From an uncultured Monoglobus sp. (GTDB taxonomy: Bacteria > Bacillota > Clostridia > Monoglobales > Monoglobaceae): 64,000 bases of DNA. The notes beneath the pieces are model-generated. The model did no database searches. It was given only the letters and a program-made list of their open reading frames with translations, and was not told the DNA's origin. This document shows positions 2,852-51,228 of the stretch, one piece after another. The stretch spans positions 2,184 through 66,183 of the forward strand of contig CANQLT010000001.1 of assembly GCA_947624775.1 (NCBI GenBank). Direction: 5' to 3'. Each line of letters starts with the position of its first letter. Position 1 is the stretch's first letter. The translations under genes and the position numbers were made by a program.

Positions 2852-3885
2852 ACTATGTCCACGCCCTTCTCGCCCGAGACGATCTCGCCGACAACATAGG
2901 CCTTTTCGCCCTCGGAGTTTATCACCTCGACGGCTTTATCGGCCTGCTCCGCGGGCACCACAAACATCATGCCGATACCCATATTGTAGGTGTTGAACAT
3001 ATCGTGTTCCGAGATGCCGCCCAGCTTTTGGAGCTTTTTAAATATCGGCGGAGTGTCAAAGCTGTCTTTTTGAATAACAGCCCTTGCGCCGTCCTTGAGC
3101 ATGCGCGGAATGTTCTCGTAAAATCCGCCGCCCGTTATGTGGGACACCGCTTTCACGTCAACAGATTCGATAGCCTTTAGCATCGGCTTCACGTAAATTT
3201 TGGTCGGCTCAAGCAGCGTTTCTCCTATCGACGCGCCCAGTTCCTCATCATACTTTTTAAGAGCCTCGGCGCAGGCATCGCTGTCGTCAATATTAAATAT
3301 CTTTCTGACAAGCGAGTAGCCGTTGCTGTGAACGCCCGACGAGGCGATGCCGATTATTTTGTCTCCGACCTCGATCCTCTCTCCGTCGATGATCTTGTCC
3401 TTGTCAACTATACCCACCGAGAATCCCGCCAAGTCATACTCGTCGGGGTCATAGAATCCGGGCATCTCGGCAGTTTCACCGCCGACCAAAGCGCAGCCCG
3501 CCTTGACGCAGCCATCGGCAATTCCCTTTACTATGTCCGCGATTTTCTCGGGTGTGTTCTTTCCTGTCGCTATGTAGTCGAGGAAGAACAGCGGTTTCGC
3601 GCCGCCGCACACAATGTCGTTGACGCACATGGCCACGCAGTCCTGTCCGACCGTGTCGTGCTTGTCCATAATGAACGCCAGTTTCAGCTTGGTTCCAACG
3701 CCGTCGGTACCCGATACCAGAACGGGGTTTTTATAGCCTCCGCCAAGCTCGAATAGGCCGCCGAAGCCGCCTATTCCCGAAACGACTCCGGGTATGTTTG
3801 TCCTCTTTACGTGCTCTTTGATGAGCTCAACCGACCTGTAGCCGGCCTCCACATCAACGCCCGCGTTTTTATAAGCTTCGCTCAT
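2848..3885 (-). CDS. purM: Phosphoribosylformylglycinamidine cyclo-ligase (AIR synthetase)
   Basis: [22 protein letters not shown] and [10 protein letters not shown] motifs. 345 aa. Confidence 0.95.
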
Positions 3886-3897
3886 TACATCGCCTCC

Positions 3898-4398
3898 TTA
3901 TATATTGTCATAAAGCTCTTTTTGAAGTTTTTTATCTTTCTCGTCAACAGCCGCCGCCATGTCCGCTTTGAATTTTTCAAGCTTTTCGGAAAGTTTTTGA
4001 TCGCTGAGCGCCAGCATCTGCACGGCCAAAATGCCCGCGTTGTCCGAGCCGTTCACTCCGACCGTCGCCACAGGTATACCCGTCGGCATCTGCACCATCG
4101 AGAGCAGCGAGTCGAGACCGTCCATAAAAGACGACTTGATCGGCAGCGCTATGACAGGCAGCGTGGTGTACGCCGCGATAACACCGCCCAGATGAGCCGC
4201 TTTGCCCGCGGCCGCGATTATCACCTTAACGCCGTTTTCCTTGGCGTTTTTGGCGAATTCTTCAGCCTTGGCCGGTGTCCTGTGCGCCGAGATCACGTGC
4301 GCCTCAAAATCAACGCCGAACGACTTCAGCATGTCGATCGCGCCCTGTACCACGGGCAGATCAGAGTTGCTTCCCATTACAATTGCTACTTGTGCCAT
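3898..4398 (-). CDS. purE: 5-(carboxyamino)imidazole ribonucleotide mutase
   Basis: VAIVMGSNSDLPV...ISAHRTP...AAGKAAHLGGVIAA, a typical PurE. 166 aa. Confidence 0.95.
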   Translation of the reverse strand: MAQVAIVMGSNSDLPVVQGAIDMLKSFGVDFEAHVISAHRTPAKAEEFAKNAKENGVKVIIAAAGKAAHLGGVIAAYTTLPVIALPIKSSFMDGLDSLLSMVQMPTGIPVATVGVNGSDNAGILAVQMLALSDQKLSEKLEKFKADMAAAVDEKDKKLQKELYDNI

Positions 4399-4428
4399 AA
4401 TGTCCTCCTGAAATATATTTGAATTTTG

Positions 4429-5628
4429 TTATCTCTCGTATACTATATTGCCGTTTACCATTGTGTATTCAACGTCGCCGCATTTCGCCGAGTAGACCAG
4501 ACTTGAGATCGGGTCGTATATCGGCCTGAGGTGGGGCATGTCGAGATCAACGACGACCAGATCGGCCAGATAACCCTCTTTTATCATTCCCAGATTGTCA
4601 AAGCCCAGTGCTCTCGCGCCATTTATTGTCGCCATTTTGAGGGCGGTCTCGGCGGGCACCGCTGTGGGGTCAAGCCCCGCGCCCTTGTGTATCAGAGCCG
4701 CGGCCTTGATCTCCTCGAACATATCAAGGCTGTTGTTGCTCGACGCGCCGTCAGTGCCCAGCGCCACGTTTATCCCCATGTCCAGCATTTTCGGGACCGG
4801 GGCTATGCCCGACGCCAGTTTAAGATTGCTTATCGGATTGTGGGCGACCGAAACGTTATGCTTTTTGAGAATTTCAAGGTCGACGTCGGTCATAACCACG
4901 CAGTGAGCGGCTATCGTCGGATTTTCAAACAGCCCCGCGCTTTCCATATACGCGGTCGGCGTCATGTTGTGCTCAATCTCACAGTCCGAGAACTCGGTTC
5001 GGGTCTCGGCCAGATGAGTGTGTATCGGCATATTGTGCTCTTTGGCATACGCCGCGCATTTTTCCAGCAACTCAAAGGAACAGGTGTATATCGCATGCGG
5101 CGAGAAGGTGAAGGTTATCAGGTCGCAGTCACTAAATTCCTCGGCCATTTCCTCCATAAGCTTTACCTTGCGGTCGTATCCGTCAAAGTTCACGCAGTCG
5201 CTTAGAACTGCGCGAATGCCCTTTTGTATCGCCGCTCTGCCCGTCTCGGCCTGAAAGAAATACATATCGCTGAAACAGGTGGTTCCTCCCGCAAGCATCT
5301 CGTCTATCGCGATCTCGCTGCCGCGGCGCACATCCTCGGGCGTCATTTTGTCCTCAAACGGAAATATCTTGTTATACAGCCAGTCCTGCAGGTTCATGTC
5401 GTCGGCGTATCCGCGGAGCAGCGTCATAGCGGTGTGGGTATGCGCGTTTATAAGGCCCGGGATAAGCGCCTTGTTCTCGCCGTTTATCACTCGGTCAAAT
5501 TCTCCCTCGATCCTGCTTGTTCCCACGTATTTTATCTTATTCCCGTCGACCGCCACAAAGCCGTTTTTTATAACGCCCGCGCTATCGTCCATGGTTATGA
5601 CCGTTATGTTTTCAAATAAGGTTTTCAT
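4429..5628 (-). CDS. mtaD: Amidohydrolase, 5-methylthioadenosine/S-adenosylhomocysteine deaminase-like
   Basis: PGLINAHTHTAMTLLRGYADDMNLQDWL, HLAETRTE, HNPISNLKLASG and LGTDGASSNNSLDMFEE match the MtaD/TRZ-ATZ deaminase pattern. Confidence 0.75.
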   Translation of the reverse strand: MKTLFENITVITMDDSAGVIKNGFVAVDGNKIKYVGTSRIEGEFDRVINGENKALIPGLINAHTHTAMTLLRGYADDMNLQDWLYNKIFPFEDKMTPEDVRRGSEIAIDEMLAGGTTCFSDMYFFQAETGRAAIQKGIRAVLSDCVNFDGYDRKVKLMEEMAEEFSDCDLITFTFSPHAIYTCSFELLEKCAAYAKEHNMPIHTHLAETRTEFSDCEIEHNMTPTAYMESAGLFENPTIAAHCVVMTDVDLEILKKHNVSVAHNPISNLKLASGIAPVPKMLDMGINVALGTDGASSNNSLDMFEEIKAAALIHKGAGLDPTAVPAETALKMATINGARALGFDNLGMIKEGYLADLVVVDLDMPHLRPIYDPISSLVYSAKCGDVEYTMVNGNIVYER

Positions 5629-5663
5629 AATTTATTCTCCGATCGTATTGTTACACTTAAAAA

Positions 5664-6122
5664 TTACTTTTCGTACTCCAGATCGTTTTCGGTAAGGTTC
5701 TTTATCTTTTCGTAATAGTCCTCGGCCTCGCAATTCGCTTCCTCAACGCTGAGATTGCGGAAGTTTCCGCACTCGATCTCGCTCGCGCCGGGCATCTCGC
5801 CGTCATAGACCGCAATTTCTTTGAATATATTTTTTATTAAGTCGACGACCTTTTTGTTGTCCGCGTTTCTCATAAGCAGATAAAACCCGGTCTGGCAGCC
5901 CATAGGGCCGAAATATATCACGTCGTCTTTAAGCTCCGAGTTCCGCGCCATTGTGGCGAACAAATGCTCTATAGAGTGCATGGTTATGTTGTCAAGCAGA
6001 CGGCCGGTGTTGGGCTTTCTCATGCGTATGTCGTAGGTCGTGATGTCGCCGTCGATTCGGGATATGTACACCCACGGCCTGATTTTTCGGTGATCCACCA
6101 TAAAGCTCGCGATTTTTTCCAT
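5664..6122 (-). CDS. luxS: S-ribosylhomocysteine lyase
   Basis: SFMVDH..., HSIEHLFA metal-binding motif, GPMGCQTGFYL. 152 aa. Confidence 0.9.
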   Translation of the reverse strand: MEKIASFMVDHRKIRPWVYISRIDGDITTYDIRMRKPNTGRLLDNITMHSIEHLFATMARNSELKDDVIYFGPMGCQTGFYLLMRNADNKKVVDLIKNIFKEIAVYDGEMPGASEIECGNFRNLSVEEANCEAEDYYEKIKNLTENDLEYEK

Positions 6123-6637
6123 TTAACTCCCCCTTCTTTAATATAATAACGATCCTGTTCCCATTTAAACAAATTAGTATCTATATAATTCCATATCCGC
6201 TCATACTCTTTTTCATTGCGTATCACATGATCGTGATAAGAACGCTGCCATAATGATATTCCCGTCTTTTTATTCGTAAACCTTTTAAGCATTGACACAA
6301 ATGACGGCACTATCTCGTTCGTAGGGGACGGCGCCCTCGACGTCCCACTTTCATTATCATTTTCAACAATCAAAATCATATGAACATGATTCGGCATAAC
6401 TATGTATTTATCTATTTTCACGCTTTCATAAATCTCTCCGGACTTCTTTATTTCATCGTCAACAATTTTACCGAGCGGAGACGGATTCATTTTAGGGACG
6501 TCGAGGGCGCCGTCCCCTACAACAACTTTGCCTAAAATGCACTTTTTGTCTTTTGTGCATATAGTTATAAAATACGCGCCGCTTTGAGAATAACTATAAT
6601 ACCTAAGTCTGTTTCGCTTTCTTGATTTAAATTCCAT
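6020..6637 (-). CDS. IS200/IS605-like HUH (Y1) transposase homolog, RayT/REP-associated type
   Basis: YFITICT, MPNHVHMIL (HUH) and WQRSYHDHVIR (Tyr region) motifs. Its start abuts the punA stop (6637/6638). The last ~100 nt read on over the luxS start in another frame. Confidence 0.75.
   Translation of the reverse strand: MEFKSRKRNRLRYYSYSQSGAYFITICTKDKKCILGKVVVGDGALDVPKMNPSPLGKIVDDEIKKSGEIYESVKIDKYIVMPNHVHMILIVENDNESGTSRAPSPTNEIVPSFVSMLKRFTNKKTGISLWQRSYHDHVIRNEKEYERIWNYIDTNLFKWEQDRYYIKEGGVKWKKSRALWWITEKSGRGCTYPESTATSRPTTYA
6321..6346. repeat. 26-bp arm of a perfect inverted repeat inside the RayT-like CDS
   Basis: gtaggggacggcgccctcgacgtccc is the exact reverse complement of 6495-6520. Each arm is itself a gggacg/cgtccc hairpin. 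Confidence 0.9.
6495..6520. repeat. Partner arm of the 26-bp perfect inverted repeat
   Basis: gggacgtcgagggcgccgtcccctac. It encodes VGDGALDVP, while the other arm encodes GTSRAPSPT. Confidence 0.9.
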
Positions 6638-7450
6638 TTACAACTTATGTATAATAACTTTTAACAATCTCATCAATTTCTCGCGGATCACGGGCTCGGC
6701 GCTGTCTATCGCTTCGCGGTTGAAGCCGCCACCCTCGATGCCCGCCGCCATGTTGGAAACGCCCGAAAGCGCCAGAATTCGAACTCCGCAATGCGCCGCC
6801 GCTATGACCTCGGGCACGGTTGACATGCCTACCAGATCTGCGCCCAATATTTTAAGCATATTTATCTCCGCGGGCGTCTCGAACTGGGGCCCGGCCATAT
6901 AGGCGTACACGCCTTTCGGAAGGCTCATTCCGAGCTGATCCGCGCTTTTTTCGCAAAGCTCGATCAGGCCCTTGTCGTAGGCGTTTGTCATGTCGAAAAA
7001 CCGCTCGCCAAGCTCCTCGGGATTCTCGCCTCTCAGCGGCGATTCGGCGCACAGCTTTATATGGTCGCGTATTACCACAATATCTCCCGGAGCGTAATCC
7101 GGGTTGACGGCGCCCGAGGCGTTTGTGAGAATAACGGTCTCGATATCCATCGCCTTGAGCATACGGATAATAAACGCGGTTTCCTCCATAGTGTAGCCCT
7201 CGTAATAATGAAGTCTGCCCTGCATGAACACGACGGGTGTTCCGTCGAGCTCGCCGATTACCATGCGGCACCTGTGGTGGTTTTTGCCGATCAGAGGAAA
7301 GCCGGGTATATCCCCGTACGGTATTATCGTTTTGTTGTCGAGACTGTCCGCCAGTTCGGCCATGCCCGTGCCGAGCACCACGGCGATCTCGGGCACTATA
7401 TCAATTTTGGAATTAACATATTCCGCGGCTTGTGTGTATGATATTGACAT
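6638..7450 (-). CDS. punA: Purine nucleoside phosphorylase (PunA/PNP-I type)
   Basis: GPQFETPAEINMLKILGADLVGMSTVPEVIAAAHCG...SNMAAG, a trimeric PNP/MTAP family signature. Confidence 0.9.
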   Translation of the reverse strand: MSISYTQAAEYVNSKIDIVPEIAVVLGTGMAELADSLDNKTIIPYGDIPGFPLIGKNHHRCRMVIGELDGTPVVFMQGRLHYYEGYTMEETAFIIRMLKAMDIETVILTNASGAVNPDYAPGDIVVIRDHIKLCAESPLRGENPEELGERFFDMTNAYDKGLIELCEKSADQLGMSLPKGVYAYMAGPQFETPAEINMLKILGADLVGMSTVPEVIAAAHCGVRILALSGVSNMAAGIEGGGFNREAIDSAEPVIREKLMRLLKVIIHKL

Positions 7451-12479: not shown

Positions 12480-12581
12480 ATTTATGTCTCCTGTCTGTCA
12501 GCATTTTTGTAAAAATATTCAACTGAATTATTATATCAATTAAATTATGTTTAGTCAATAAATATAACCTAAAAATTAGAC

Positions 12582-17224: not shown

Positions 17225-17376
17225 GATATTGCTCCTATAAATTCCGATTTGTAACTTCGCTTTATTTAAAAATGATTATATCACAATCCGCCGGCTTTTT
17301 CAATCCCTCGCGGAGACCTCACGAAGCCGGAAAATTTTATGATAATTTATACAGCATATTAGTACCACGGACAAGC

Positions 17377-40886: not shown

Positions 40887-41558
40887 TCAAGACATATATT
40901 CTCCGTTATAACTTACGAGGCATACATTCGAAACACCCGGGCAATTTGCCAAAGTGTTTACTATTTCTGATTCGCCTTTTTTTACTCTGACTTCATAGGT
41001 CAACTCTATGCCGTGCTTAGTAATATTTTTTGATTTAAGAGAATGTTTTTTGGTTCTTTTGCCAATCATTCCCGCAACCGCTTTTTCCGCTTGCTTGTCA
41101 GCGCAATTCGCCATTAGAATATACGGTGTATCAAATCCTTTTCTGTTTGCAAATATAAGAATAATCAATCCGATACAAACAGAGCCTATGACCGCGAGGG
41201 GAATAAATCCGGCTCCGACAACAATACCTACTCCGATTGACCAGAACAGAAATACAATGTCCATCGGGTCTTTAATCGCTGTTCGGAATCTCACGATTGA
41301 CAGAGCGCCGACCATACCAAGCGATAAAACGACATTTGCCGTTACCGCGAGAATAATAAGAGCTGTAACCATTGCCATGGTTATAAGTGATAATCCGAAA
41401 GAAGAGCTATACATAACGCCCGAAAAAGACTTTTTATATATCACAAAAATAAACAAACCAATCACAAAAGAAATTGCAAGTGCAATTAGAATATCAGCGA
41501 TAGTTAATGAAACTACCTGATCCAGAAAATTGGACTTAAAAATATCATTAAAAGTCAT
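40887..41558 (-). CDS. DUF4956-domain membrane protein
   Basis: VGALSIVRFRTAIKDPMDIVFLFWSIGVGIVVGAG is the DUF4956 core. It is the usual partner of VTC-domain genes. Confidence 0.8.
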   Translation of the reverse strand: MTFNDIFKSNFLDQVVSLTIADILIALAISFVIGLFIFVIYKKSFSGVMYSSSFGLSLITMAMVTALIILAVTANVVLSLGMVGALSIVRFRTAIKDPMDIVFLFWSIGVGIVVGAGFIPLAVIGSVCIGLIILIFANRKGFDTPYILMANCADKQAEKAVAGMIGKRTKKHSLKSKNITKHGIELTYEVRVKKGESEIVNTLANCPGVSNVCLVSYNGEYMS

Positions 41559-41608
41559 TATTTTCCCACCCTTTTCTTATAATTTAATATGTAAAATTTA
41601 TTTTTTTC

Positions 41609-42274
41609 CTATGCAAAACGCGTAGCCGCGTACTTTGAAAAAGAGGAAATACTCCTGCAGTTTGTTTGAACCGCGTGTCTTACAATCTGCGGAAGAAACT
41701 CATCCCACTTTACCTCGAGAATGGTGTTCTCATCGGCATAATCAAAGCCTGTGTCTTCCTTGAGAAAATTATACACATTTGCGCTGCCTTTAAGATTTTT
41801 GTCCAGCGTTACTCTGCAATTACCGGGTTCATACACAAACGCCTCTCGGTCATATATAACAATGCTAACCGGTCTGAGCTGCTGAAAATACATTTTAGAG
41901 TAAAGTTCCCGGATCAAATCATCCTCGCTTTCGCGCATCCAATCAATCTCTCCCCCGATAATCATTTCACATTTGTCAGAACTGATCTCAGTGGACTGTT
42001 TAAGGCATAAGCCCTTAATCTTACTCTTTTTTTCAAGCCGAATAAAACTTAAATCATCATTATAATATCTTATTCTGAACTTCTCACGTTTATCAACGCC
42101 ATACAGCTTTTCTTTGAGAGCCTTATTATTATAGTTATCAAAATAAAGACTTTTTATCGTATAATCTCCCAAGGGCCCGCAATGCTCGTCGCGTTTAAAA
42201 AGCACACTTAATTTACGCGATAAAACCAACGCGTCCCCTCTATTGATCATATATTTGCACTCGTGTCGAAACAT
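41609..42274 (-). CDS. VTC-domain (polyphosphate-polymerase-like) protein
   Basis: MFRHECKYMI...IKSLYFDN...REKFRIRYY...LEKKSK, the bacterial VTC (PF09359) pattern. Confidence 0.8.
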   Translation of the reverse strand: MFRHECKYMINRGDALVLSRKLSVLFKRDEHCGPLGDYTIKSLYFDNYNNKALKEKLYGVDKREKFRIRYYNDDLSFIRLEKKSKIKGLCLKQSTEISSDKCEMIIGGEIDWMRESEDDLIRELYSKMYFQQLRPVSIVIYDREAFVYEPGNCRVTLDKNLKGSANVYNFLKEDTGFDYADENTILEVKWDEFLPQIVRHAVQTNCRSISSFSKYAATRFA

Positions 42275-42330
42275 ATTTGCGTCTCCTAAATAATTCTGTT
42301 TTTTTCATATATTAATATATTAAGTATATA

Positions 42331-42360
42331 TTTCTCGCAAAACTATAATGTTTTACGAAA
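42331..42360. repeat. Left inverted repeat / recombinase core-site candidate
   Basis: tttctcgcaaaactataatgttttacgaaa, laid out arm-spacer-arm (cgcaaaac TATAAT gttttacg). Confidence 0.85.
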
Positions 42361-42385
42361 GGCAAAATTCACCATATTTTGTTTT

Positions 42386-42414
42386 ATTATAGCATAAATG
42401 AACAAAAAGTACAA
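42386..42414 (-). promoter_or_regulatory. Near-consensus extended -10 promoter reading leftward out of the cassette into the VTC gene
   Basis: On the minus strand, TTGTAC (rc of 42409-42414), 17 nt, then TGcTATAAT (rc of 42386-42394). Confidence 0.5.
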
Positions 42415-42549
42415 TATTTTTTTGGTAATTTTGTTTGTTTAAAATACATAATTTTGCCAAAACAATTTTGTGCAAAACGCAGAATTATTTGTATTTATTG
42501 ATATAATTAACTTATTTACCGTCAAATTTTTGGTACAGGAGGATAAGAT

Positions 42550-43623
42550 ATGTCGAGAAAAGGCGAAAACATTTATAAAAGAAAGGATAAACGATGGGAA
42601 GGACGATATATAGCAGCGTATGATGCCATGGGCAAAGCTGTGTATAAATCACTATATGGCAAAACTTATACCGAGGTCAAACTAAAGATGAAAAATCATG
42701 TTGAGCCGGAAAAAATTAATCCTGTAGCTATATCTTTTGTATCGTGGACAGAGGAATATCTTAAATCACAGGGTGACAGATTAAAGATAGGAACGTACAA
42801 GATTTATGAAAGATATATTGAAAACTACTTTAAACCGTTTTTTGGGAATACATCATTGCGCAAGATGAACAGTACAATTGTACAGGCCTTTGTTAATTCT
42901 TTGTCCGATTTGGCTCCTTCCACGGTCAAGGGCATTTTTTCCTTCATGCGCAAAGCCCTTAAAAAAGCTGACAAAGAAAATTATATCGTTCCTATATACC
43001 TTGATATAAACTTACCTAAAATTAAGCGCGGCAATGTTACGGTGTTCTCGCGAGAAGAACAGAAGCAGATTGAAAATACACTTAACATTGAGGAAAATCC
43101 AAATGATATAGGGATTTTGATATGTCTTTATACCGGGCTTCGCATAGGTGAGGTATGCGGTTTGAAATGGAGCGACATTGACTTTAAAAACGAGGATATG
43201 TATATAAACAGAACATTACAGCGATTGACTATAGATGGCAGATCCGTCTTGCGTGAACTGCCGCCTAAGAGCGAAACCTCGAAACGCAAGATCCCTATAC
43301 CGCCGTGTCTGCTTGTTAAACTAAAAACAGCGTGGAAATTGCGGCAGTCAGTATATGTACTTCAAACCAATTATCACGCAATGGATACAAGAACATTTCA
43401 ATATCAATACAAGAAAATATTAGAGTGCGCCGGTGTACGGTATGCCAACGCGCACACTTTGCGCCACACATTCAGTGTCCGCGCGCTGGAGCTTGGATTT
43501 GATATTAAAACATTAAGCGAAATACTGGGTCACGCTGACGCGACCGTTACGCTAAAGATTTACGCTCATTCTCTCGATGAACACAAAAGGAACAGCATGG
43601 CAAAGTTTGAAGAAATAATTTAA
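42550..43623 (+). CDS. Tyrosine-type site-specific recombinase/integrase
   Basis: SAM-like N-domain, GLRIGEVCGLKW (Arg I), HTLRHTFSVRALE (H-x-x-R), LGHADATVTLKIYAHS (catalytic Tyr). AGGAGG RBS. Confidence 0.9.
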   Translation: MSRKGENIYKRKDKRWEGRYIAAYDAMGKAVYKSLYGKTYTEVKLKMKNHVEPEKINPVAISFVSWTEEYLKSQGDRLKIGTYKIYERYIENYFKPFFGNTSLRKMNSTIVQAFVNSLSDLAPSTVKGIFSFMRKALKKADKENYIVPIYLDINLPKIKRGNVTVFSREEQKQIENTLNIEENPNDIGILICLYTGLRIGEVCGLKWSDIDFKNEDMYINRTLQRLTIDGRSVLRELPPKSETSKRKIPIPPCLLVKLKTAWKLRQSVYVLQTNYHAMDTRTFQYQYKKILECAGVRYANAHTLRHTFSVRALELGFDIKTLSEILGHADATVTLKIYAHSLDEHKRNSMAKFEEII

Positions 43624-43687
43624 TCACCGTATAAATTTTGGTCAAATTTTTATAGAAAGTCCGAGCCTATTTGACTTTTGGGGTTTA

Positions 43688-43717
43688 TTTCATAAAACAT
43701 TATAGTTTTGCGAAATA
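43688..43717. repeat. Right inverted repeat / recombinase core-site candidate
   Basis: tttcataaaacattatagttttgcgaaata. The spacer ATTATA is inverted relative to the left site. Confidence 0.85.
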
Positions 43718-43732
43718 GAAATCCGGATATTA

Positions 43733-43770
43733 AACCGCTGATTTCAGAAATATGAAATTAGCGGTTTTTT
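43733..43770 (+). terminator. Rho-independent terminator just outside the right repeat
   Basis: aaccgctgatttca / tgaaattagcggtt 14-bp stem (one G-U) followed by TTTTTT. Confidence 0.55.
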
Positions 43771-44052
43771 GCTTTTTCAGCTAATATCCCATTTAAAACA
43801 AAGCACAAACAATGTCATTTTTCAATTTAATGCTGTTTTATTTTTATGCAATTATATCAAATATATTCTATTATTGCGATATTTTTGAGAATTTATTCTA
43901 ATATTTATATAAATTTTATCGTGTATAATATAATAAAAAAACATGCAGCCATCCTTATCCGAACAAGCAAATCGAAATCGCAGACAAACCGGGCAGCATT
44001 GCGGGCGCAGATTACTTAGCGAATACATCCAATTTGTAGCCGCCTAAATGAC

Positions 44053-44093
44053 AAAATCCCGAAAAGATAACGCAAAACCGTTACTTTTCGGGA
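44053..44093 (-). terminator. Rho-independent terminator downstream of the vWA gene
   Basis: Minus strand TCCCGAAAAG ... CTTTTCGGGA 10-bp stem followed by TTTTGTC. Confidence 0.5.
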
Positions 44094-44227
44094 AAGAAGC
44101 GCAAAATCAATTGACAGGTATCCTTCCTCTTGCCTTTTCATCCACAACATCAAACCTTGTCAGAGCGCTGTTATGCTTAAGATACGCAAGTTTAACCGCT
44201 CTTGCAATTGGATTTTTCTTATACCTC

Positions 44228-44875
44228 CTATTTTTCTCTTTTAAACCTCTCCTCGATCCGTTTTTTCCAGCTTTTGTCGATAGGCGCGGCGCAGCAGCGC
44301 GCTTGTGTGATCGTTTCGCACATCACATCGTAGTTCAGCATGGTTCCTTCTTCATCGCTTTTGTAGTTAACGGCAAAATCGCGGTCGATGCCGATCATCG
44401 CGCCCATTTCGGCGGAGTCGATATTAGCGCCCAGAAACAAAAACTCCCAGCCGTATTTTTTCTTCTGCCGCTCGATCATCTTCTTCACTCTGTCATAGCT
44501 GTACTCGCGGCTGGCGTTTTCCATGCCGTCGGTCGTGATTATGAACAGCGTCTTTTCCGGCACGTCTTCATTTACGGCGTATTTGTGTATATTGCCGATA
44601 TGGCTGATCGTGCCGCCCACCGCATCCAAAAGCGCCGTGCAGCCGCGGGTGAAATATTCGCGGTCGGTCATGTCCTTTACGTCTTTGATCGGCGCGCGGT
44701 CACAGATCGTTTCGACCTCGTCGTCAAACAGCACCGTTGTGACATAGGCCTCACCATCGACCTTACGCTGCTTTTCAAGCATTGAGTTGTAGCCGCCTAT
44801 CGTGTCGCGTTCAAGGCCGTGCATCGATCCGCTGCGGTCCAGGATAAACACTATCTCCGTTAAATTCTTTTTCAT
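44228..44875 (-). CDS. von Willebrand factor A (vWA) domain protein
   Basis: IVFILDRSGSM MIDAS motif and a TTDGMEN vWA fold pattern. Start at ATG 44875 (AGAGAGG RBS) rather than the ORF-track 44956. Confidence 0.8.
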   Translation of the reverse strand: MKKNLTEIVFILDRSGSMHGLERDTIGGYNSMLEKQRKVDGEAYVTTVLFDDEVETICDRAPIKDVKDMTDREYFTRGCTALLDAVGGTISHIGNIHKYAVNEDVPEKTLFIITTDGMENASREYSYDRVKKMIERQKKKYGWEFLFLGANIDSAEMGAMIGIDRDFAVNYKSDEEGTMLNYDVMCETITQARCCAAPIDKSWKKRIEERFKREK

Positions 44876-45034
44876 TTGAAAAACCTCTCTTTCATTTAAT
44901 TGATGAGTTAATTTTACATCAATAAAAAGAGATTTTGGTCGCTTCATAAACGACATTTTTCAGTAAGGGAATACGATCCCCTCCCGAAAAAGTCCAACAA
45001 CAGGGCTTTATCCTTTATTGATATATCTGATTCT

Positions 45035-47377
45035 TTATTGCAATCTTATATAATCCTTATACGAATAGCCGCATGCGCCGTTATATTCAACCCAATACCA
45101 GTTGCCGAATGTTTTGTCGGTATACACGGTCATCGACGCGCCTTCGGGTATCTCTCCGATCGGATAGCCCTTCTGCGGCTTGCTGTTTATCGCCAGCACC
45201 CTGCCGCCGGTGCCGTAAACAACTCCTGTGAGCTTGTTTGAATTCGGGTCTGCCGAAATATAGTCCCTGTACGAATATCCGCTTACGCCGTTATATTCAA
45301 CCCGGTACCAGTTGCCGGATGTTTTGTCGGTATACACGGTCATCGACGCGCCCTCGGGTATCTCTCCGATCTGATGATTTTTATTGGGCTCACTGTTGAT
45401 AGCCAGCGCCCTGCCGCCCGTGTTTACCACATAGGCGGTATAGGTATTTTCCGAGCCTCCGTTATCGGGAGGCGGAACAGATGGCGTCGCCGTAGTGAAC
45501 GAGCTGATTTCGCCGCGATACTCGTTTCCGTCTAAGACAGCGTAGAACTGATAATAGTAGGTCGAGCCTGCCGACAGATATTGTCCCGCCTCGGCGTTTA
45601 AGTCATACCACACATCAAACGGGTTTTTGCTGAAATCTATAACATCATGCGCGACTTTGCTTAAGCCATCGGGAGATGTGCCGAAATACAGTCCCGCCTC
45701 GCTCGGACGGCTGCCGGAGTACGACACACTGCCATAGACCGTGGCATTTGTGCTTGACACATTTCTCGCGTCCAGCGTATTGACCGTTATGCTGCTCTTG
45801 GGCGGCTCGGGAGGCGTGTATGGTACAAGATTTCCGAGATTCGCAATGCCCGCTCCGTAATATGCGGAATTGCCGAGACCCGACGCGGAGCTTTTAAGCG
45901 CGTTCACAGCCTCGCCGGATGAATATCCGGGATTGGCACTCCTGATAAGCGCCATCGCGCCGGAGATATGCGGGGCCGACATAGATGTGCCCTGGAGGCT
46001 CTGTTCACCTCCGCCGATAGCCGCGCCGTTTATTCCGACGCCCGGAGCCGCTATATCTATCACGCCGCTGCCATAGTTGCTGAAATATGCTTTCTCATTG
46101 TTTGAATCAACCGCCGAGACTGTGACCACTCCCGGCACACTTGCCGGAATATAGGGAGTTGCCGAAATATCAATATTATCGTTTCCGGCAGATGCCACGA
46201 CTGTTACACCTTTTGAGACAGCACTTGTTACTCCTCTGTCCTTTGCACTCTCGCTTCGACCGCCGAGGCTGAGATTTATCACATCCGCCCCTGCTTTTAC
46301 CGCATAATCGATGCCTTGGTCAACGACGAGTGACGTTGTTTTTCCCTCATTTCCAAACACCTTTATCGGCATTATTTTCACTCGGCTGAAGCCGGCGGTC
46401 ACGTCAGCGATCGTGCTTGCCACGTGAGTACCATGACCGTCTATATCTTCGGGAGTACTGTCATTATTGTATATGTCATAACCGGATACGATTTTGCCGT
46501 TAAAGCAGCTATGTGTGCTGTCAAGTCCGGTGTCGATGACCGCGACAACAACATCCGACTGCCGCGAGCCGAAGGCGTTACAGAAACTCGGGGCGTTGAT
46601 CTTATCCGTTCCCCACGAAAGCGATGTTTCTTTGAGTATGTAATCAGGCTCCGCATCATACCCGCGAGCGGTGTTGCGCTTTTCGCCCTGTATTGCTTCC
46701 TTTTCGGTGGTATACTGCATTACCGTCATGCCTTCGCCTTTGATAACGGTCGTCGCACCCGAAGTGTCGGCGTTTTCGGAATACACAATTATCCTTTTGG
46801 TCTGATACGGCTTTGTGAGAGAAATGCTCTGATCATTCTCGTTCCAGTCAACATCGCACCCGAGAGCCTCTGCGGCCGCTCTGAGCGGTATCAGTGTTCG
46901 GTCGTTCACGGTTTGAGCCGCGACTGCCATCTCCTGTGCCTCGCCGTTAATCTCGATCAAAGTGCTGCCTATCTGCATTGACACCTCGTTCTCATCATCC
47001 GAAAGTGAAACGGTCTGCGTCGGCTCGTCATAAACGACCTCCGCTCCTATCGCCTCGGCGACGCCGCGAATCGGCAAAAGCGTCGTGTCATTCTCTATTA
47101 TCGGAACGCTGCCTTCGTTGTCGATCTTGATGCGCTCACCGTCAAGGCTCATTGTGTCAGAGCCTATTTTCAGATTAAGCGAACTGATATAATCGTCACT
47201 CATTGTCGATGACACAAGCTCGGATATTTGAGCCATAAAATCATCGCTATTTGTTTCAAACGGTTCCTCGGCCGAGACCCCGACAATCGAAAACAGCATG
47301 ATTGCTGATGTGAGTATTGATATCATTTTTTTCATAATTTTTTTCATAATTATTACCATTCCTTTCGTTATGCTCAC
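45035..47377 (-). CDS. Secreted S8 subtilisin-like peptidase with CuAO-N stalk, Ig/Fn3-like and two SH3b-like domains
   Basis: VAVIDTGLD (Asp), HGTHVAST (His), GTSMSAPHISG (Ser). Signal peptide. The likely true start is ATG 47347 (MKKIMKKM...). Confidence 0.85.
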   Translation of the reverse strand: MSITKGMVIIMKKIMKKMISILTSAIMLFSIVGVSAEEPFETNSDDFMAQISELVSSTMSDDYISSLNLKIGSDTMSLDGERIKIDNEGSVPIIENDTTLLPIRGVAEAIGAEVVYDEPTQTVSLSDDENEVSMQIGSTLIEINGEAQEMAVAAQTVNDRTLIPLRAAAEALGCDVDWNENDQSISLTKPYQTKRIIVYSENADTSGATTVIKGEGMTVMQYTTEKEAIQGEKRNTARGYDAEPDYILKETSLSWGTDKINAPSFCNAFGSRQSDVVVAVIDTGLDSTHSCFNGKIVSGYDIYNNDSTPEDIDGHGTHVASTIADVTAGFSRVKIMPIKVFGNEGKTTSLVVDQGIDYAVKAGADVINLSLGGRSESAKDRGVTSAVSKGVTVVASAGNDNIDISATPYIPASVPGVVTVSAVDSNNEKAYFSNYGSGVIDIAAPGVGINGAAIGGGEQSLQGTSMSAPHISGAMALIRSANPGYSSGEAVNALKSSASGLGNSAYYGAGIANLGNLVPYTPPEPPKSSITVNTLDARNVSSTNATVYGSVSYSGSRPSEAGLYFGTSPDGLSKVAHDVIDFSKNPFDVWYDLNAEAGQYLSAGSTYYYQFYAVLDGNEYRGEISSFTTATPSVPPPDNGGSENTYTAYVVNTGGRALAINSEPNKNHQIGEIPEGASMTVYTDKTSGNWYRVEYNGVSGYSYRDYISADPNSNKLTGVVYGTGGRVLAINSKPQKGYPIGEIPEGASMTVYTDKTFGNWYWVEYNGACGYSYKDYIRLQ
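45053..45435. repeat. 210-bp tandem duplication (two SH3b-like modules)
   Basis: 45061 and following versus 45271 and following. Includes an identical 32-bp run, gttttgtcggtatacacggtcatcgacgcgcc, in both copies. Confidence 0.85.
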
Positions 47378-47454
47378 AACACATAAGATTTAATTCATAG
47401 TGAATATGAAACTGCGGATTTGAGACGTAATACCCTAAATCACTCGGCAGCGTT

Positions 47455-50400
47455 TCAATTGACTTTTCCTGTTTCTAAATCTGCGATTAATTTTTTGCCT
47501 CGCTCGATCAGCTCATCCGTAGTCAAATAATTATAGTATACAAAATTGTGTCCGTCCGCGGTGTATCCGTCGCACAAGATCTTCTTATCGTTCTTCATGA
47601 AGTATTCGTAGGAGTCATTTACAACGAATTTTAATTGCATACTGTCAAAGTCAAATATATTCAGTTTACTTACGTCTTTCACAAAGAAAGAGCTGTCATC
47701 CGCGAACTCGCAGTCAGTATAAGAAGCAACAACAAGTTCCGTATTCAAACGCATAACCTCTTCAAGCGTAGCAACCGAATATTTTATTAACTCACCATTC
47801 GCGCACATCGCCAATATGTATTTCGAATCCGGAGAAAACTTTATTTTACTCGGCACCGCCTCATCTCTCGGAATCACAATTCTTGAAATATTCTCATCAC
47901 CGGCTTTATATATTCCTATATATCCCTCATTTCCCTCTTTGCCGAGAAAAGCGATCAGATCGCCATCCGATGAGTTTATCAAGGATGTCACCTTTCCGTC
48001 TTCATAAACAAAATCGCTATTATTGTCCTGCACGCACGGTATATTATTATCGCCTAATTTAAAATATCTTATTTTGTGTCCGGCATTTTCGCTTGTGGTA
48101 AACGTTATAAATTCGTTTGATACGCTGTAGTCATATATATAATCATATGATCGCTCTCTACGGTACATTATGCTGCGTATATCCGTGCCGTTGGACAAAT
48201 TTATATAAAGTATGCCGTCCTGCGTACAAAACAGTATAGAGTCGCCGACCGGAAATATATCCGCCCTTTCAAAATATAAAAACTCTTTGGCGAGAATATT
48301 ATTAAGTTCTCTGAATCTCTGTTTCAAATCAATTTTTTCGCACAAATTTCCATTGTAATCAAATATTTCCGCTTTCCCGTTATCGTCAACAACAAACAGT
48401 TTATCGCCGACAAACGCCATATTTGATACGTCCATATCAATTTCTTTGTATGCAAGCAGCGTATCGCTGTTTACATCGTAAATAATAATATAATCCTTTC
48501 TTTCCTTATTATTCAACTCAAACACATCTTGATAGTGATATTTATATGCGGCAAATACGCCTTTTCCGTTGTCCGAAAACTTATCAAAGACACCCGTTTC
48601 GGTCGGCATATTATTTAGCCTGACAGAGTTATTAAATGAAATCTTTTGGTACAGCTTTATCTCCGAAGAGTCTCTCGAGGCAATGGCAAAATCACTTTCG
48701 TTAGCATGGGCCATATATTCTATTTCTTCATCAAAAGTATAATATCTATCCGCGAAAAGCAATGAATCCTTATTATATCTGGTTTCACCCTCGTAATAAC
48801 GCATCAACATGTATGTTCCAAATACTTTTCTTCCTCCGATCTGCACGGTGTTTTTTTCATTCGGCTTGCAATATATTACTTGATTGTCGTAATCCGTTGC
48901 CGTTTGAAAGTATTTCTCGCCGCTCTGCCTGTCAAATGCCAATATATTTGTTCCACTTATAACGATAACGCCGTTTCTGGGATTAAATACACCATTATCA
49001 TCAGGGACATTATGCGTCAGTTCAAAAACACAATTATACATATACGCTGATAAATAGTTCCCCTCATATTTAGTTTTCCACTTTACGGACATGTCATTTT
49101 TAGCAAAACAAACGAGTTCAGCGTTATACGATGATAAGATATCCTCACTTCTTATTCGTAAATTTAAAAACACACATTCCTCGCTCTCTCCTATAGCCAA
49201 AACCTCGTCATAATCTTCAGTGGGTAAATCAAACCACTGCCAATTGTTTTCGCTCGAATTGAGAACCCCTATTTTGCCGTCTTTGATATCGGTCACATAT
49301 ACGCGCCCGCCGCGATCCATATATGTTTTATCATCAATTCCACATTTATAATTGTTGTTTTCTTCGGAAGCGCTATTTATAACAGCGCCGTCTTTACCTA
49401 TAAGCCGATAAGTCGAATATGATGTTATTAATATCTTATCGGTTTTTTCGTTCATTTCAATATCGTCAAACGAAATACTTTCGCTATCATATCTCCAATT
49501 CAAATCACCGCTTTGCAAATCAATCGAGACCAGCACTCCGTTTGACAGCACATAACCTGTATTTTTGTCAACACAAATGTCCCTTGCGGAAGTGTCTTGC
49601 GATTGGTCAAACAATTCATTCGGAGAATATGTTTTTATAATTTGAGCGGTCGCGTAATCAATAATATATACATTGCCGGTCGAATCTCCGGCAAGAATAT
49701 GCGCGCCATCCTCGGCAAATTCCAAAAAATTAACATATCCGGACAAGTTAACAGTTTTGCGAAACATCTTATTATCCGAACTGTACGCGCCTATGGATTC
49801 GATCAACACTCTTTCGGCAAGCGGATTTTGGGGTATATCATCGTCATTATCGTTTGGAAGAGCCTCGATCGCTGTCTGTATAGCGGAAGTTATATCATCA
49901 TTTTTGTAATAAGTTTCCGACTGGTTAGCAAGTATTTCCGAGTTTTTTATCCTTACGGTTCTATTCGCCTCATTTGCCAAAGCCTCATTTTCCAACGCGG
50001 TTTGCATATTGGCCTCGGCTATCTCTTTCTGCTTGTTTGCCTCATCCATATTGGCTTCGGCAATTTCTCTTTGTCGAGTAGCCTCCTCAAGATTTGCCTC
50101 CGCGGCTTGCCGCTGAATATTCGCCTCCGCATAATTATTATTTGCTTCCTCGGTTTTTTGGGCCAGATCGGCGTTGCTTTTCGTCAGCGCCGTATTGGCG
50201 CTGTCCAGATCACCGTTAGCTTTTTGCAGCTGCTCGTTACTTTGGTCGAGCTGCGTGTTGGTTTGCTGCAGCTTGCTGTTGGTTTGCTGCAAGGCGTTAT
50301 TGGCGCTGTCCAGATCCGTATTACTCTTTGTCAGCGCCAAGTTCGCGCTGTCAAGTTTGTTGTTTGTTTCGGTCAGAGAGATGTTCGCGCTGTCCAATTG

Positions 50401-51228
50401 AGTATTTGTATCTTCGAGCTTGGTATTTGTTTCATCCAGCTCTTTATTTGTCTTGTCCAATTCTTTATTTGTTGATTCAAGATTGGAATTGCTTGTATTC
50501 AATTCTTCCGTCCTGAGCCGGAGTTCTTCGTTTTTGGCCTGCAATTCATTTCTTTGCTCGCTGATCTGCATAAGCATAATGCTGCTGTATATCATAAAAA
50601 GCGACATAAGAAGGAATGCGGCGACAACGGCAAATGTTATTTTTCTGACTTTGCGTCTATGATTTCTGTTAAATAAATCATCATATCCGCATCCCAATAA
50701 CGGCGCAACAATACGCAAGAACTCATTGTTTAATTTTTTAAGCGTCTGCTTTTGTGTGCCCGAAACAATATTCGCGGCTAAAGGTTCAACCCACTTTTCC
50801 TCACGCACAACAGAGCCGTCAGGCAGCACACGCGTTTCTATCGTGGTGCAAAGCTCTTTTGGGAAAACCTCATCCGGCTCACCTTCCGCCAGAAGGGTTA
50901 TTATATTTTCGGTCGTGCCGTTATGCAGCTTCTTAAATTGCGTGATTTCTTCAAGACACCATCTTGATTTCGCTGTGTCTTTTGAACAAATAACAATAAG
51001 ATACTCTGAATTGGCGAGCGCGCTTTTTATATCTTCGCTTAAATCGCTGCTTGACGGAAGCTCGGTTTCATCTCTGAAAACCTTCCATTTTTCCTTTGAG
51101 TTTCGCATTCCCTTTGGCGCCTTGTAAGTCTCAAGCATTTTCTGAAGTTTTTGGGCAATCTTTTTATCAAGCTCCGTATGTCGGTAACTTATAAACGCCT
51201 TATATGAATATTCTTTCATCGCAAACAC
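47455..51228 (-). CDS. TIR-domain membrane protein (TIR / TM / heptad coiled coil / beta-propeller-like ectodomain)
   Basis: YKAFISYRH...LIVICSKDTAKSRWCLEEI TIR motifs, TM at aa ~198-220, 16 NxxLxxx heptads, then ~800 aa of beta-rich repeats. Start is GTG 51228 or ATG 51219. Confidence 0.8.
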   Translation of the reverse strand: MFAMKEYSYKAFISYRHTELDKKIAQKLQKMLETYKAPKGMRNSKEKWKVFRDETELPSSSDLSEDIKSALANSEYLIVICSKDTAKSRWCLEEITQFKKLHNGTTENIITLLAEGEPDEVFPKELCTTIETRVLPDGSVVREEKWVEPLAANIVSGTQKQTLKKLNNEFLRIVAPLLGCGYDDLFNRNHRRKVRKITFAVVAAFLLMSLFMIYSSIMLMQISEQRNELQAKNEELRLRTEELNTSNSNLESTNKELDKTNKELDETNTKLEDTNTQLDSANISLTETNNKLDSANLALTKSNTDLDSANNALQQTNSKLQQTNTQLDQSNEQLQKANGDLDSANTALTKSNADLAQKTEEANNNYAEANIQRQAAEANLEEATRQREIAEANMDEANKQKEIAEANMQTALENEALANEANRTVRIKNSEILANQSETYYKNDDITSAIQTAIEALPNDNDDDIPQNPLAERVLIESIGAYSSDNKMFRKTVNLSGYVNFLEFAEDGAHILAGDSTGNVYIIDYATAQIIKTYSPNELFDQSQDTSARDICVDKNTGYVLSNGVLVSIDLQSGDLNWRYDSESISFDDIEMNEKTDKILITSYSTYRLIGKDGAVINSASEENNNYKCGIDDKTYMDRGGRVYVTDIKDGKIGVLNSSENNWQWFDLPTEDYDEVLAIGESEECVFLNLRIRSEDILSSYNAELVCFAKNDMSVKWKTKYEGNYLSAYMYNCVFELTHNVPDDNGVFNPRNGVIVISGTNILAFDRQSGEKYFQTATDYDNQVIYCKPNEKNTVQIGGRKVFGTYMLMRYYEGETRYNKDSLLFADRYYTFDEEIEYMAHANESDFAIASRDSSEIKLYQKISFNNSVRLNNMPTETGVFDKFSDNGKGVFAAYKYHYQDVFELNNKERKDYIIIYDVNSDTLLAYKEIDMDVSNMAFVGDKLFVVDDNGKAEIFDYNGNLCEKIDLKQRFRELNNILAKEFLYFERADIFPVGDSILFCTQDGILYINLSNGTDIRSIMYRRERSYDYIYDYSVSNEFITFTTSENAGHKIRYFKLGDNNIPCVQDNNSDFVYEDGKVTSLINSSDGDLIAFLGKEGNEGYIGIYKAGDENISRIVIPRDEAVPSKIKFSPDSKYILAMCANGELIKYSVATLEEVMRLNTELVVASYTDCEFADDSSFFVKDVSKLNIFDFDSMQLKFVVNDSYEYFMKNDKKILCDGYTADGHNFVYYNYLTTDELIERGKKLIADLETGKVN
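50164..50490. repeat. 21-bp periodic coding repeat (16 consecutive N-x-x-L-x-x-x heptads)
   Basis: Asn at aa 247, 254 ... 352 and Leu at aa 250, 257 ... 355 of the TIR protein, with no phase break. Confidence 0.85.

Follow-up and report, generated by a model that had tools for sequence, protein, structure and literature searches.

Organisation of the locus

The subject of this report is a 1.38-kb segment in a 64,000-nt stretch of DNA from an uncultured Monoglobus sp. (assembly GCA_947624775.1, contig CANQLT010000001.1, positions 2,184 to 66,183; hereafter the window), in which a tyrosine recombinase gene is enclosed by two short inverted sites and which probably acts as an invertible promoter cassette (inverton). 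The features of the cassette and its surroundings are collected in Table 1. The VTC gene (41609-42274, minus strand) lies to the left of the segment, its ATG start codon at 42274 being 57 nt beyond the left repeat, and it is followed by a long series of co-directional genes. Between the two sites there is a single open reading frame (ORF), which encodes a tyrosine recombinase of 357 amino acids.

The repeats that bound the segment were recovered by a repeat search as two arms of 35 nt, 86% complementary, with 1327 nt between them. On direct reading, 42331-42360 agrees with the reverse complement of 43688-43717 at 27 of 30 positions, including a perfect 21-bp match (42335-42355 and 43693-43713). 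The 22-bp core pattern CGCAAAACTATAATGTTTTAYG, which can be written out as CGCAAAAC-TATAAT-GTTTTAYG, has exactly two matches in the window when three mismatches are allowed, and these are in opposite orientation; the expectation from shuffled sequence is 0.01 matches, and two or more were seen in 0 of 100 shuffles. Hence, from the repeat search and the shuffle counts, the inverted repeat is real and non-random. Each core site is made of an 8-bp arm, an asymmetric 6-bp spacer (TATAAT), and another 8-bp arm, and the segment is bounded, as an inverton is, by two recombination sites in inverted orientation.

The outward promoter, designated P_out, is located 30-58 nt inside the left core and is directed through the left site toward the VTC gene, with a predicted transcription start near 42379. 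The strict form of this promoter (TTGnnn-17-TGnTATAAT) has only five matches in the whole window, four of which are P_out itself and three minus-strand matches at 12530, 15634, and 17275, all in intergenic gaps directly upstream of minus-strand genes; the pattern therefore looks like a genuine promoter class of the organism, and P_out is presumed to be active. The pattern appears to be the strong-promoter signature of the organism, and its three matches away from the cassette could help to delimit operons across the window. On the other side of the segment, the terminator hairpin beyond the right repeat folds at -36.5 kcal/mol (z = -7.2). The original prediction had described the 27/30 repeats with their 21-bp perfect core, the arm-spacer-arm layout of the inverted sites, the recombinase gene within the segment, the minus-strand promoter, and the hairpin with its T-run, and each of these was found again in the sequence at the place given.

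Table 1. Features of the cassette and its flanks, in window positions
Feature	Positions	Strand	Description
Left inverted repeat	42326-42360		22-bp core site at 42336-42357, CGCAAAAC-TATAAT-GTTTTACG
P_out, predicted outward promoter	42386-42414	-	TTGTAC (42414-42409), 17 nt, extended -10 TGCTATAAT = TGcTATAAT (42394-42386)
Lone half-site-like GCAAAAC	42472-42478	+	About 25 nt upstream of the P_int -10, over the P_int -35 region
Candidate integrase promoter, P_int	42499-42507	+	TGATATAAT, extended -10; predicted from sequence
Left CCGT-N8-TGGT copy	42519-42534	+	Downstream of P_int and ahead of the integrase ribosome-binding site; some 30 nt from the ATG
Integrase	42550-43623	+	N-terminal beta3-alpha domain, SAM-like core-binding domain, catalytic domain
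Right CCGT-N8-TGGT copy	43627-43642	+	4 nt past the integrase stop; direct orientation relative to the left copy
Right inverted repeat	43688-43722		Core site at 43691-43712; minus strand reads CGCAAAAC-TATAAT-GTTTTATG
Intrinsic terminator	43732-43777	+	Hairpin and T-run just outside the right repeat; terminator scan, 43732-43767
Operon facing P_out	17526-42274	-	22 co-directional genes, 24.7 kb, VTC first; all intergenic gaps <=82 nt

Evidence for inversion

The locus has an ortholog in an Oscillospiraceae metagenome-assembled genome (MAG; locus L003, CAYTZR010000036.1). The integrase, VTC, and DUF4956 proteins of the two loci are 82%, 75%, and 92% identical in amino acids, and six syntenic genes, which open the array (VTC, DUF4956, Cthe_2159, the Zn-ribbon protein, and two more), show 60-92% protein identity. 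In the DNA alignment, the VTC flank matches plus/minus while the cassette matches plus/plus (window 42331-43715 with L003 647-2032). Since the flank and the cassette align in opposite senses, the cassette is flipped against the operon in L003, with the breakpoints at the repeats. In L003, the VTC gene lies behind P_out, which faces a strong hairpin flush with the core on the non-operon flank.

A second line of evidence comes from the way in which the cassettes assemble in metagenomes. Many integrase homologs are found on contigs of about 1.3-1.45 kb. For example, three samples have one integrase (P0003, 82% identity) on long contigs, whereas in three others it occupies isolated contigs of 1413, 1389, and 1385 bp; likewise, another (P0020, 71% identity) is on long contigs in some samples and on isolated short contigs elsewhere. 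These short contigs (1385-1413 bp) begin and end within the core sites. Canonical de Bruijn graphs were simulated from the long reference contigs L018 and L011. The parental sequence alone produced no break, because the repeats are 23-26 nt long and hence shorter than k-1. Once the inverted junctions were added, the L018 graph yielded a unitig of 3791-5178 (k=31), which equals the observed contig L021, and the L011 graph yielded 305-1693 and 305-1689 (k=31) and 305-1717 (k=55), which equal L015, L016, and L014. The contig ends thus agree to the base in four samples and with two assemblers, and only with the inverted junctions added; therefore, the reads in these four samples must have joined the same flank to a flipped interior. 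A sixth isolated contig (L041), from another sample, is also bounded by the repeats and falls 6 nt short of the L040 prediction at either end, which is consistent without being exact.

Both orientations accordingly occur in nature, between orthologous loci and, for paralogous cassettes, within samples. Inversion rather than excision had been predicted from the inverted sites, and the flipped L003 cassette and the need for inverted junctions in the graphs agree with it. Switching in the strain of the window itself is presumed. The window cassette was not found in the opposite orientation among the one contig available for its integrase and the three for its VTC protein; all of these show the same orientation at low coverage and are uninformative on switching in this strain.

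Three further comparisons were set aside. The Logan contig L036 stems from the study that also produced the L003 MAG and is oriented like L003, so it adds nothing. L007 and L008 were considered as one locus in two orientations; they share one inverted piece of flank, but their genes on the other side are non-homologous. L007 and L018 have a 95% identical flank at opposite ends of cassettes that are 72% identical, an arrangement that was not used as evidence of inversion.

A family of related cassettes

A homolog search returned dozens of integrases at 50-86% identity, nearly all of them from animal-gut metagenomes. Nine loci were taken from GTDB genomes, these being rabbit 'Lapin' MAGs labelled Clostridia, Monoglobus or Oscillospiraceae, and further cassette contigs were obtained by exact-protein look-ups. 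In 13 complete cassettes at 13 loci the integrase lies between the same arm-spacer-arm sites, at 1369-1386 bp from core to core. All of them share the conserved arms (CGCAAAAC / GTTTTGCG), and the left spacer is identical to the right spacer in 13/13. The spacer itself varies from cassette to cassette, with nine forms (TATAAT, TCTAAT, TTTATG, TATAGT, TCTATG, TCTATA, TATAAG, TGTAAT, and AACAAT) and a tenth, TACAAT, in the surviving right site of L004. Judging from these alignments, fixed arms with a variable but pairwise-matched spacer are the signature of a tyrosine-recombinase strand-exchange (overlap) region. P_out (TTGnnn, 17 nt, TGnTAnnnT) is also present in every one of the 13, at cassette coordinate ~50 on the minus strand.

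At nearly every locus, one flank of the cassette has the 5' end of an operon about 50-290 nt from a core, and the opposite flank has either the 3' end of a convergent gene or a terminator hairpin. P_out is directed toward the operon in the window, L005, L007, and L038, and away from it in L002, L003, L004, L006, L008, L009, L011, L018, and L037. The adjoining operons are diverse and include an FtsK/HerA-like ATPase of 1657 amino acids; a STAS-kinase; a bAvd and reverse transcriptase pair resembling a diversity-generating retroelement (DGR); NPCBM and cohesin/dockerin surface proteins; a radical-SAM cluster; a PP2C gene; an acetyltransferase and EamA pair; a Tad-type pilus operon (three loci); and DUF445 with dynamin-like GTPases.

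No description of this cassette family was found in the literature. The family, from uncultured gut Clostridia, is previously undescribed, and it represents a known kind of switch (the inverton) in a new configuration, the new features being an Int-type tyrosine recombinase inside a portable 1.38-kb inverton and paralogs diversified in their spacers. A metagenome scan with the core pattern gave 102 matches, essentially all of them single palindromic hairpins from unrelated environments; the sole double match (L042) proved to be a 260-bp tandem repeat.

Some individual loci deserve mention. Two MAGs each contain two paralogous cassettes with the same arms, namely Lapin-012__bin102 (L002 and L007, spacers TCTAAT/TCTATG) and Lapin-030__bin80 (L006 and L009, spacers TATAGT/TCTATA); different spacers on the same arms in one genome fit the idea that spacer divergence insulates cassettes from one another. 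In L004 (5264-5870; uncultured Monoglobus MAG CANQKC010000039.1), the 3' end of a transposase-like ORF (...HWHLDVTFREDANK...) replaces the left core and P_out, the similarity to the L006 cassette (78% identity) starts only at 5871, and the right core is intact. This looks like a natural phase-locked derivative that arose by insertion of an insertion sequence (IS) or by deletion. In L005 (cassette at 5795-7163), P_out faces a bAvd-like gene and then a reverse transcriptase (3193-5685, minus strand), which suggests a phase-variable DGR. The 95% identical flank shared by L007 (7145-10169) and L018 (798-3817) is 3 kb long and encodes two large serine recombinases (420 and 526 amino acids); it adjoins the right core in L007 and the left core in L018, and the other flanks are unrelated. 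It may reflect the exchange of flanks by recombination at the cores of separate cassettes, or else a mobile element with the core as its target.

Proposed mechanism and its alternatives

The reading that we favour, with a probability of about 0.8, is that window positions 42336-43712 constitute a self-contained invertible promoter cassette. The 357-aa recombinase would bind the 8-9-bp palindromic arms of the two bounding 22-bp core sites and exchange strands within the identical asymmetric 6-bp spacers, and since the sites are inverted, this exchange would flip the 1.38-kb segment. In the orientation of the window, P_out would fire outward through the left core into the VTC gene, and its transcript probably runs on through the whole array. 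In the flipped orientation, P_out would face the strong terminator at 43732-43777, and the operon would lie downstream of the integrase gene, where it would receive at most read-through from the weaker P_int. The same terminator would at present stop the integrase transcripts and, after inversion, those of P_out. The paralogous cassettes of rabbit and other animal-gut Clostridia each stand before a different operon with a spacer of their own, and the difference in spacers would keep the cassettes of one genome from recombining together. We infer catalysis by the cassette's own recombinase, as well as the extent of the regulated transcript. The comparative evidence supports this reading of an invertible promoter switch well.

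The array in front of P_out encodes VTC, DUF4956, Cthe_2159, and Zn-ribbon proteins, transmembrane and SLH proteins, Cu_amine_oxidN1, YARHG, and DUF805 proteins, three PP2C phosphatases, three Ser/Thr kinases, and trypsin-FHA, RDD-FHA, and FHA proteins, the SLH and Cu_amine_oxidN1 members being wall-associated. There is no promoter of the strict P_out class within 17526-42274, the next being that at 17275, in the 301-nt gap that ends the array, and terminator-like matches on the minus strand inside the array are at chance level. Control of the full 25 kb by the switch, as originally proposed, is compatible with this close spacing of genes and the lack of a second strict promoter before the 301-nt gap. 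It is plausible, without being proven, that P_out serves the entire array of about 25 kb, and weaker internal promoters are possible.

Several observations weigh against the proposed switch. The activity of P_out is predicted from its sequence. The comparison of the window with L003 is one between related organisms, and it tells that inversion took place at least once and gives no frequency. In L003, a possible separate promoter (TTGAAT, 17 nt, CATAAT) stands between the VTC gene and the core. Only one orientation, that with P_out toward VTC, is seen in the window and in three additional samples of its strain. In 9 of the 13 reference assemblies, the integrase and the neighbouring operon run in the same direction, and without a terminator at the end of the integrase gene the flipped operon could be co-transcribed with it.

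The last of these points bears on what inversion does. Between the integrase stop and the right core, no conserved terminator is present across the cassettes, and only the core palindrome folds. With the integrase gene thus open toward the right site, some expression may persist in the OFF state, and the switch may be high/low rather than strictly ON/OFF. The OFF side of the switch first proposed is therefore uncertain, and inversion may bring the operon under the integrase promoter by read-through. An alternative is that the cassette does flip but serves as a promoter swap or rheostat, in which the operon is transcribed from P_out in one orientation and as part of an integrase-operon message from P_int in the other, so that inversion alters the level of expression and couples the operon to that of the recombinase. 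The missing terminator and the co-directional integrases speak for it, as does the distance from the integrase stop to the next start, which is as short as ~108 nt in L037. Against this, P_int is the weaker match, having an extended -10 only and no TTG -35 at proper spacing; the core-site palindrome and the leader could lower read-through; and OFF is the expected majority state for costly phase-variable operons. We regard the rheostat as possible and on balance unlikely.

Far less probable is that the cassette is a small IS-like transposon with a tyrosine recombinase, its repeats being terminal inverted repeats used for transposition. The cassette is indeed a discrete unit that recurs in 11 or more unrelated genomic settings, with the similarity between cassettes stopping exactly at the repeats, and two MAGs have two copies each. 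Identical copies and target-site duplications were looked for as signs of transposition, as had been advised at the outset, and neither was found; there are no target-site duplications or direct repeats outside the cores at any of the 13 loci, and copies in the same genome are only 67-86% identical in protein rather than nearly identical. Moreover, the position is kept between the window and L003 although the neighbours have diverged to 75-92% identity, the spacers differ among copies, inverted core sites cannot give an excised circle, and the assembly-graph data need the same flanks to be joined to a flipped interior, that is, an inversion in place. The least credible alternative, a non-switching remnant or integration module of a prophage, an integrative and conjugative element (ICE), or an integrative mobile element exploiting Xer (IMEX), with the repeats as degenerate att or dif-like sites, has in its favour that the closest solved relative is the integrase of the conjugative transposon Tn1549 and that a relative at 46% identity (P0099) is truly the integrase of an ICE end, beside TraG and NlpC/P60 genes, but it is opposed by the lack of other mobile-element genes in or beside the cassette, by inverted sites that flank the integrase alone, by an architecture, promoter, and spacer co-variation kept over 13 loci, by the absence of relatives in viral contigs, and by scores far below the cut-offs of the Xer equivalog models (XerD 58.8 against 329.6, XerC 57 against 335, and XerS 35 against 267 bits).

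P0099 itself had been tried as a multi-assembly switch, as it occurs in 73 index blocks, and was rejected as an ordinary integrase of an ICE end, with no inverted cores on its flanks.

The recombinase and other elements inside the cassette

The integrase matches PF00589 (Phage_integrase) at 88.4 bits, the cut-off being 27.1, and also the SAM-like N-domain PF14659; its nearest solved structure is Tn1549 Int (6EMY, E = 3e-15). The alignment with Tn1549 Int places the catalytic motifs at TGLRIGE (Arg I), HTLRHTF (His/Arg II), LGHAD (His), and KIYAHS (Tyr), and the beta-hairpin Lys within PPKSETSKRKIPIP. These catalytic residues are nearly invariant over 47 homologs. By these matches, the protein is a member of the tyrosine recombinase superfamily (PF00589) with the full catalytic signature.

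The N-terminal ~50 residues are modelled as beta-beta-beta-alpha, i.e., a three-stranded sheet with a helix, at a predicted local distance difference test (pLDDT) score of 86-92. Pfam gave no match to the N-terminal 63 amino acids at E <= 5, and Foldseek gave nothing significant for the N-terminal model, the AP2/ERF domain 1gcc having a TM-score of 0.47 and E = 1.1. The sheet-plus-helix topology is that of the arm-binding domains in the lambda and Tn916 integrases. It might be hypothesised from the model that the domain binds arm-type sites.

Candidate sites for such binding exist within the cassette. The right CCGT-N8-TGGT copy is found at the same place in all 13 cassettes, 4-6 nt after the integrase stop, and the left copy has the strict form in 8/13 and a relaxed form (GTCAAA-N5-TGGT) in all nine aligned loci. 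The motif is a candidate accessory (arm-type) or operator site. The -10 of P_int is kept as TGnTATAAT in six of the nine aligned loci, with close variants in the other three. Likewise, at the position of the lone half-site, TGCAAAA(C/T)G is conserved in six of the nine loci and degenerate in three. The GCAAAAC motif noticed earlier upstream of the integrase is thus present, while its suggested autoregulatory role is possible and, with such moderate conservation, weakly supported. Rfam gave no match in window 41500-45000.

There is also a broader and more tentative reading, about which we are more doubtful than confident. The cassettes may be portable 'plug-in' modules of phase variation (core, outward promoter, Int-type recombinase, core) that have spread to many unrelated operons of Monoglobales/Oscillospiraceae-like gut Clostridia, kinase-NACHT genes among them, with the paralogs of one genome made orthogonal by their spacers, and with an arm-binding N-terminal domain and the two CCGT-N8-TGGT sites assembling the synapse for inversion. 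If true, this would mean a heterobivalent integrase that acts as an invertase, and a natural set of about ten mutually orthogonal inversion switches.

Comparison with known systems

By analogy, the cassette is functionally closest to the Salmonella H segment, of which it is a functional analogue and not a family member. The Hin system (also Gin, Cin, and Pin) similarly has the recombinase and an outward promoter inside an invertible segment of about 1 kb with short inverted sites, and its inversion connects or disconnects the promoter and the adjacent operon, as is proposed here. However, Hin is a serine recombinase with hix-type sites and a Fis-bound enhancer, whereas the present cassette has a tyrosine recombinase and dif/lox-like arm-spacer-arm sites. 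The likeness to the hin segment with a tyrosine in place of a serine enzyme, drawn already in the original prediction, holds, as the integrase matches only tyrosine-recombinase families and not the serine invertases (PF00239). Hin has been cited as an example of a recombinase within the invertible segment, and recombinases are usually 'near or inside' the invertible regions (PMC5903667, PMC9881135). In a survey of gut invertons, the nearby invertases were generally outside and non-regulatable (PMC11892184).

The E. coli fimS switch with FimB/FimE (and the related IpuA/B, HbiF, and MrpI) also inverts a promoter element between inverted repeats by means of a tyrosine recombinase, its output being a phase-variable surface-structure operon. 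FimB/E are about 200 amino acids long and encoded outside a 314-bp switch, while the Int-type enzyme of the cassette has 357 amino acids, two further domains at the N-terminus, and its gene inside the 1.38-kb switch; the FimB/FimE-type model (NCBIfam tyrosine-type DNA invertase NF007370) scores 30.2 bits on it against a cut-off of 221. The RecV switches of Clostridioides difficile and the Tsr/Mpi invertons of Bacteroides are likewise invertible promoters for surface or signalling genes of gut anaerobes, with inverted repeats of 20-40 bp. They rely on one trans-acting or neighbouring recombinase for several switches of 150-400 bp, unlike the present cassettes, each of which has its own recombinase and spacer.

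In the ivr/SpnD39III locus of Streptococcus pneumoniae and other hsdS shufflons (CreX/IvrR), the tyrosine recombinase gene is within the inverting region. The hsdS shufflons reshuffle coding sequence (target-recognition domains), whereas the repeats here are intergenic and the payload is a promoter; a related survey is available (PMC7672463). The integrases of the Tn916/Tn1549 type are closest in the sequence and structure of the catalytic domain, and they have a small N-terminal beta-sheet-plus-helix domain before the SAM-like domain. They differ in their context, since the cassette has no excisionase, conjugation genes, or direct att repeats, and its inverted sites flank the integrase alone. 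The comparison with heterobivalent integrases (lambda, Tn916) is drawn from the beta-beta-beta-alpha model of the N-terminus and the conserved internal CCGT-N8-TGGT motifs, the binding being putative. In the Xer-dif system, there is a single dif site at the terminus, as against the paired inverted sites that flank the gene here.

Significance

In gut bacteria, phase variation arises in large part through invertible promoters, and those known are mostly from Bacteroidales, Enterobacteriaceae, and C. difficile, being short with the recombinase outside. Common inverton callers probably limit the distance between repeats to well under 1.4 kb; if so, the 1.38-kb class with the recombinase inside would be missed systematically by surveys. 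The family stands before large gene arrays of the signalling or conflict type and before surface structures, which suggests that these populations are heterogeneous in the expression of whole 25-kb kinase/phosphatase/FHA systems, of Tad pili, and even of a DGR. Cassettes with shared arms and different spacers also provide synthetic biology with a natural series of recombinase/site pairs that are potentially orthogonal. An isolated contig whose ends match a k-mer simulation offers a cheap, read-free way of detecting active inversion in public assemblies.

Genes on the other side of the cassette

The region upstream of the cassette (window 44228-51228, minus strand) encodes a vWA protein, an S8 subtilase with Cu_amine_oxidN1 and SH3 domains, and a TIR-WD40 protein of 1257 amino acids, and a terminator-like hairpin at ~44058-44095 lies between these genes and the cassette. 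PADLOC, run on 10 neighbouring proteins, gave only generic matches to kinase, protease, and subtilase domains and no recognised defence system. The vWA, subtilase, and TIR-WD40 genes, taken with the kinase/PP2C/FHA array, look like a large island of the signalling or conflict type.

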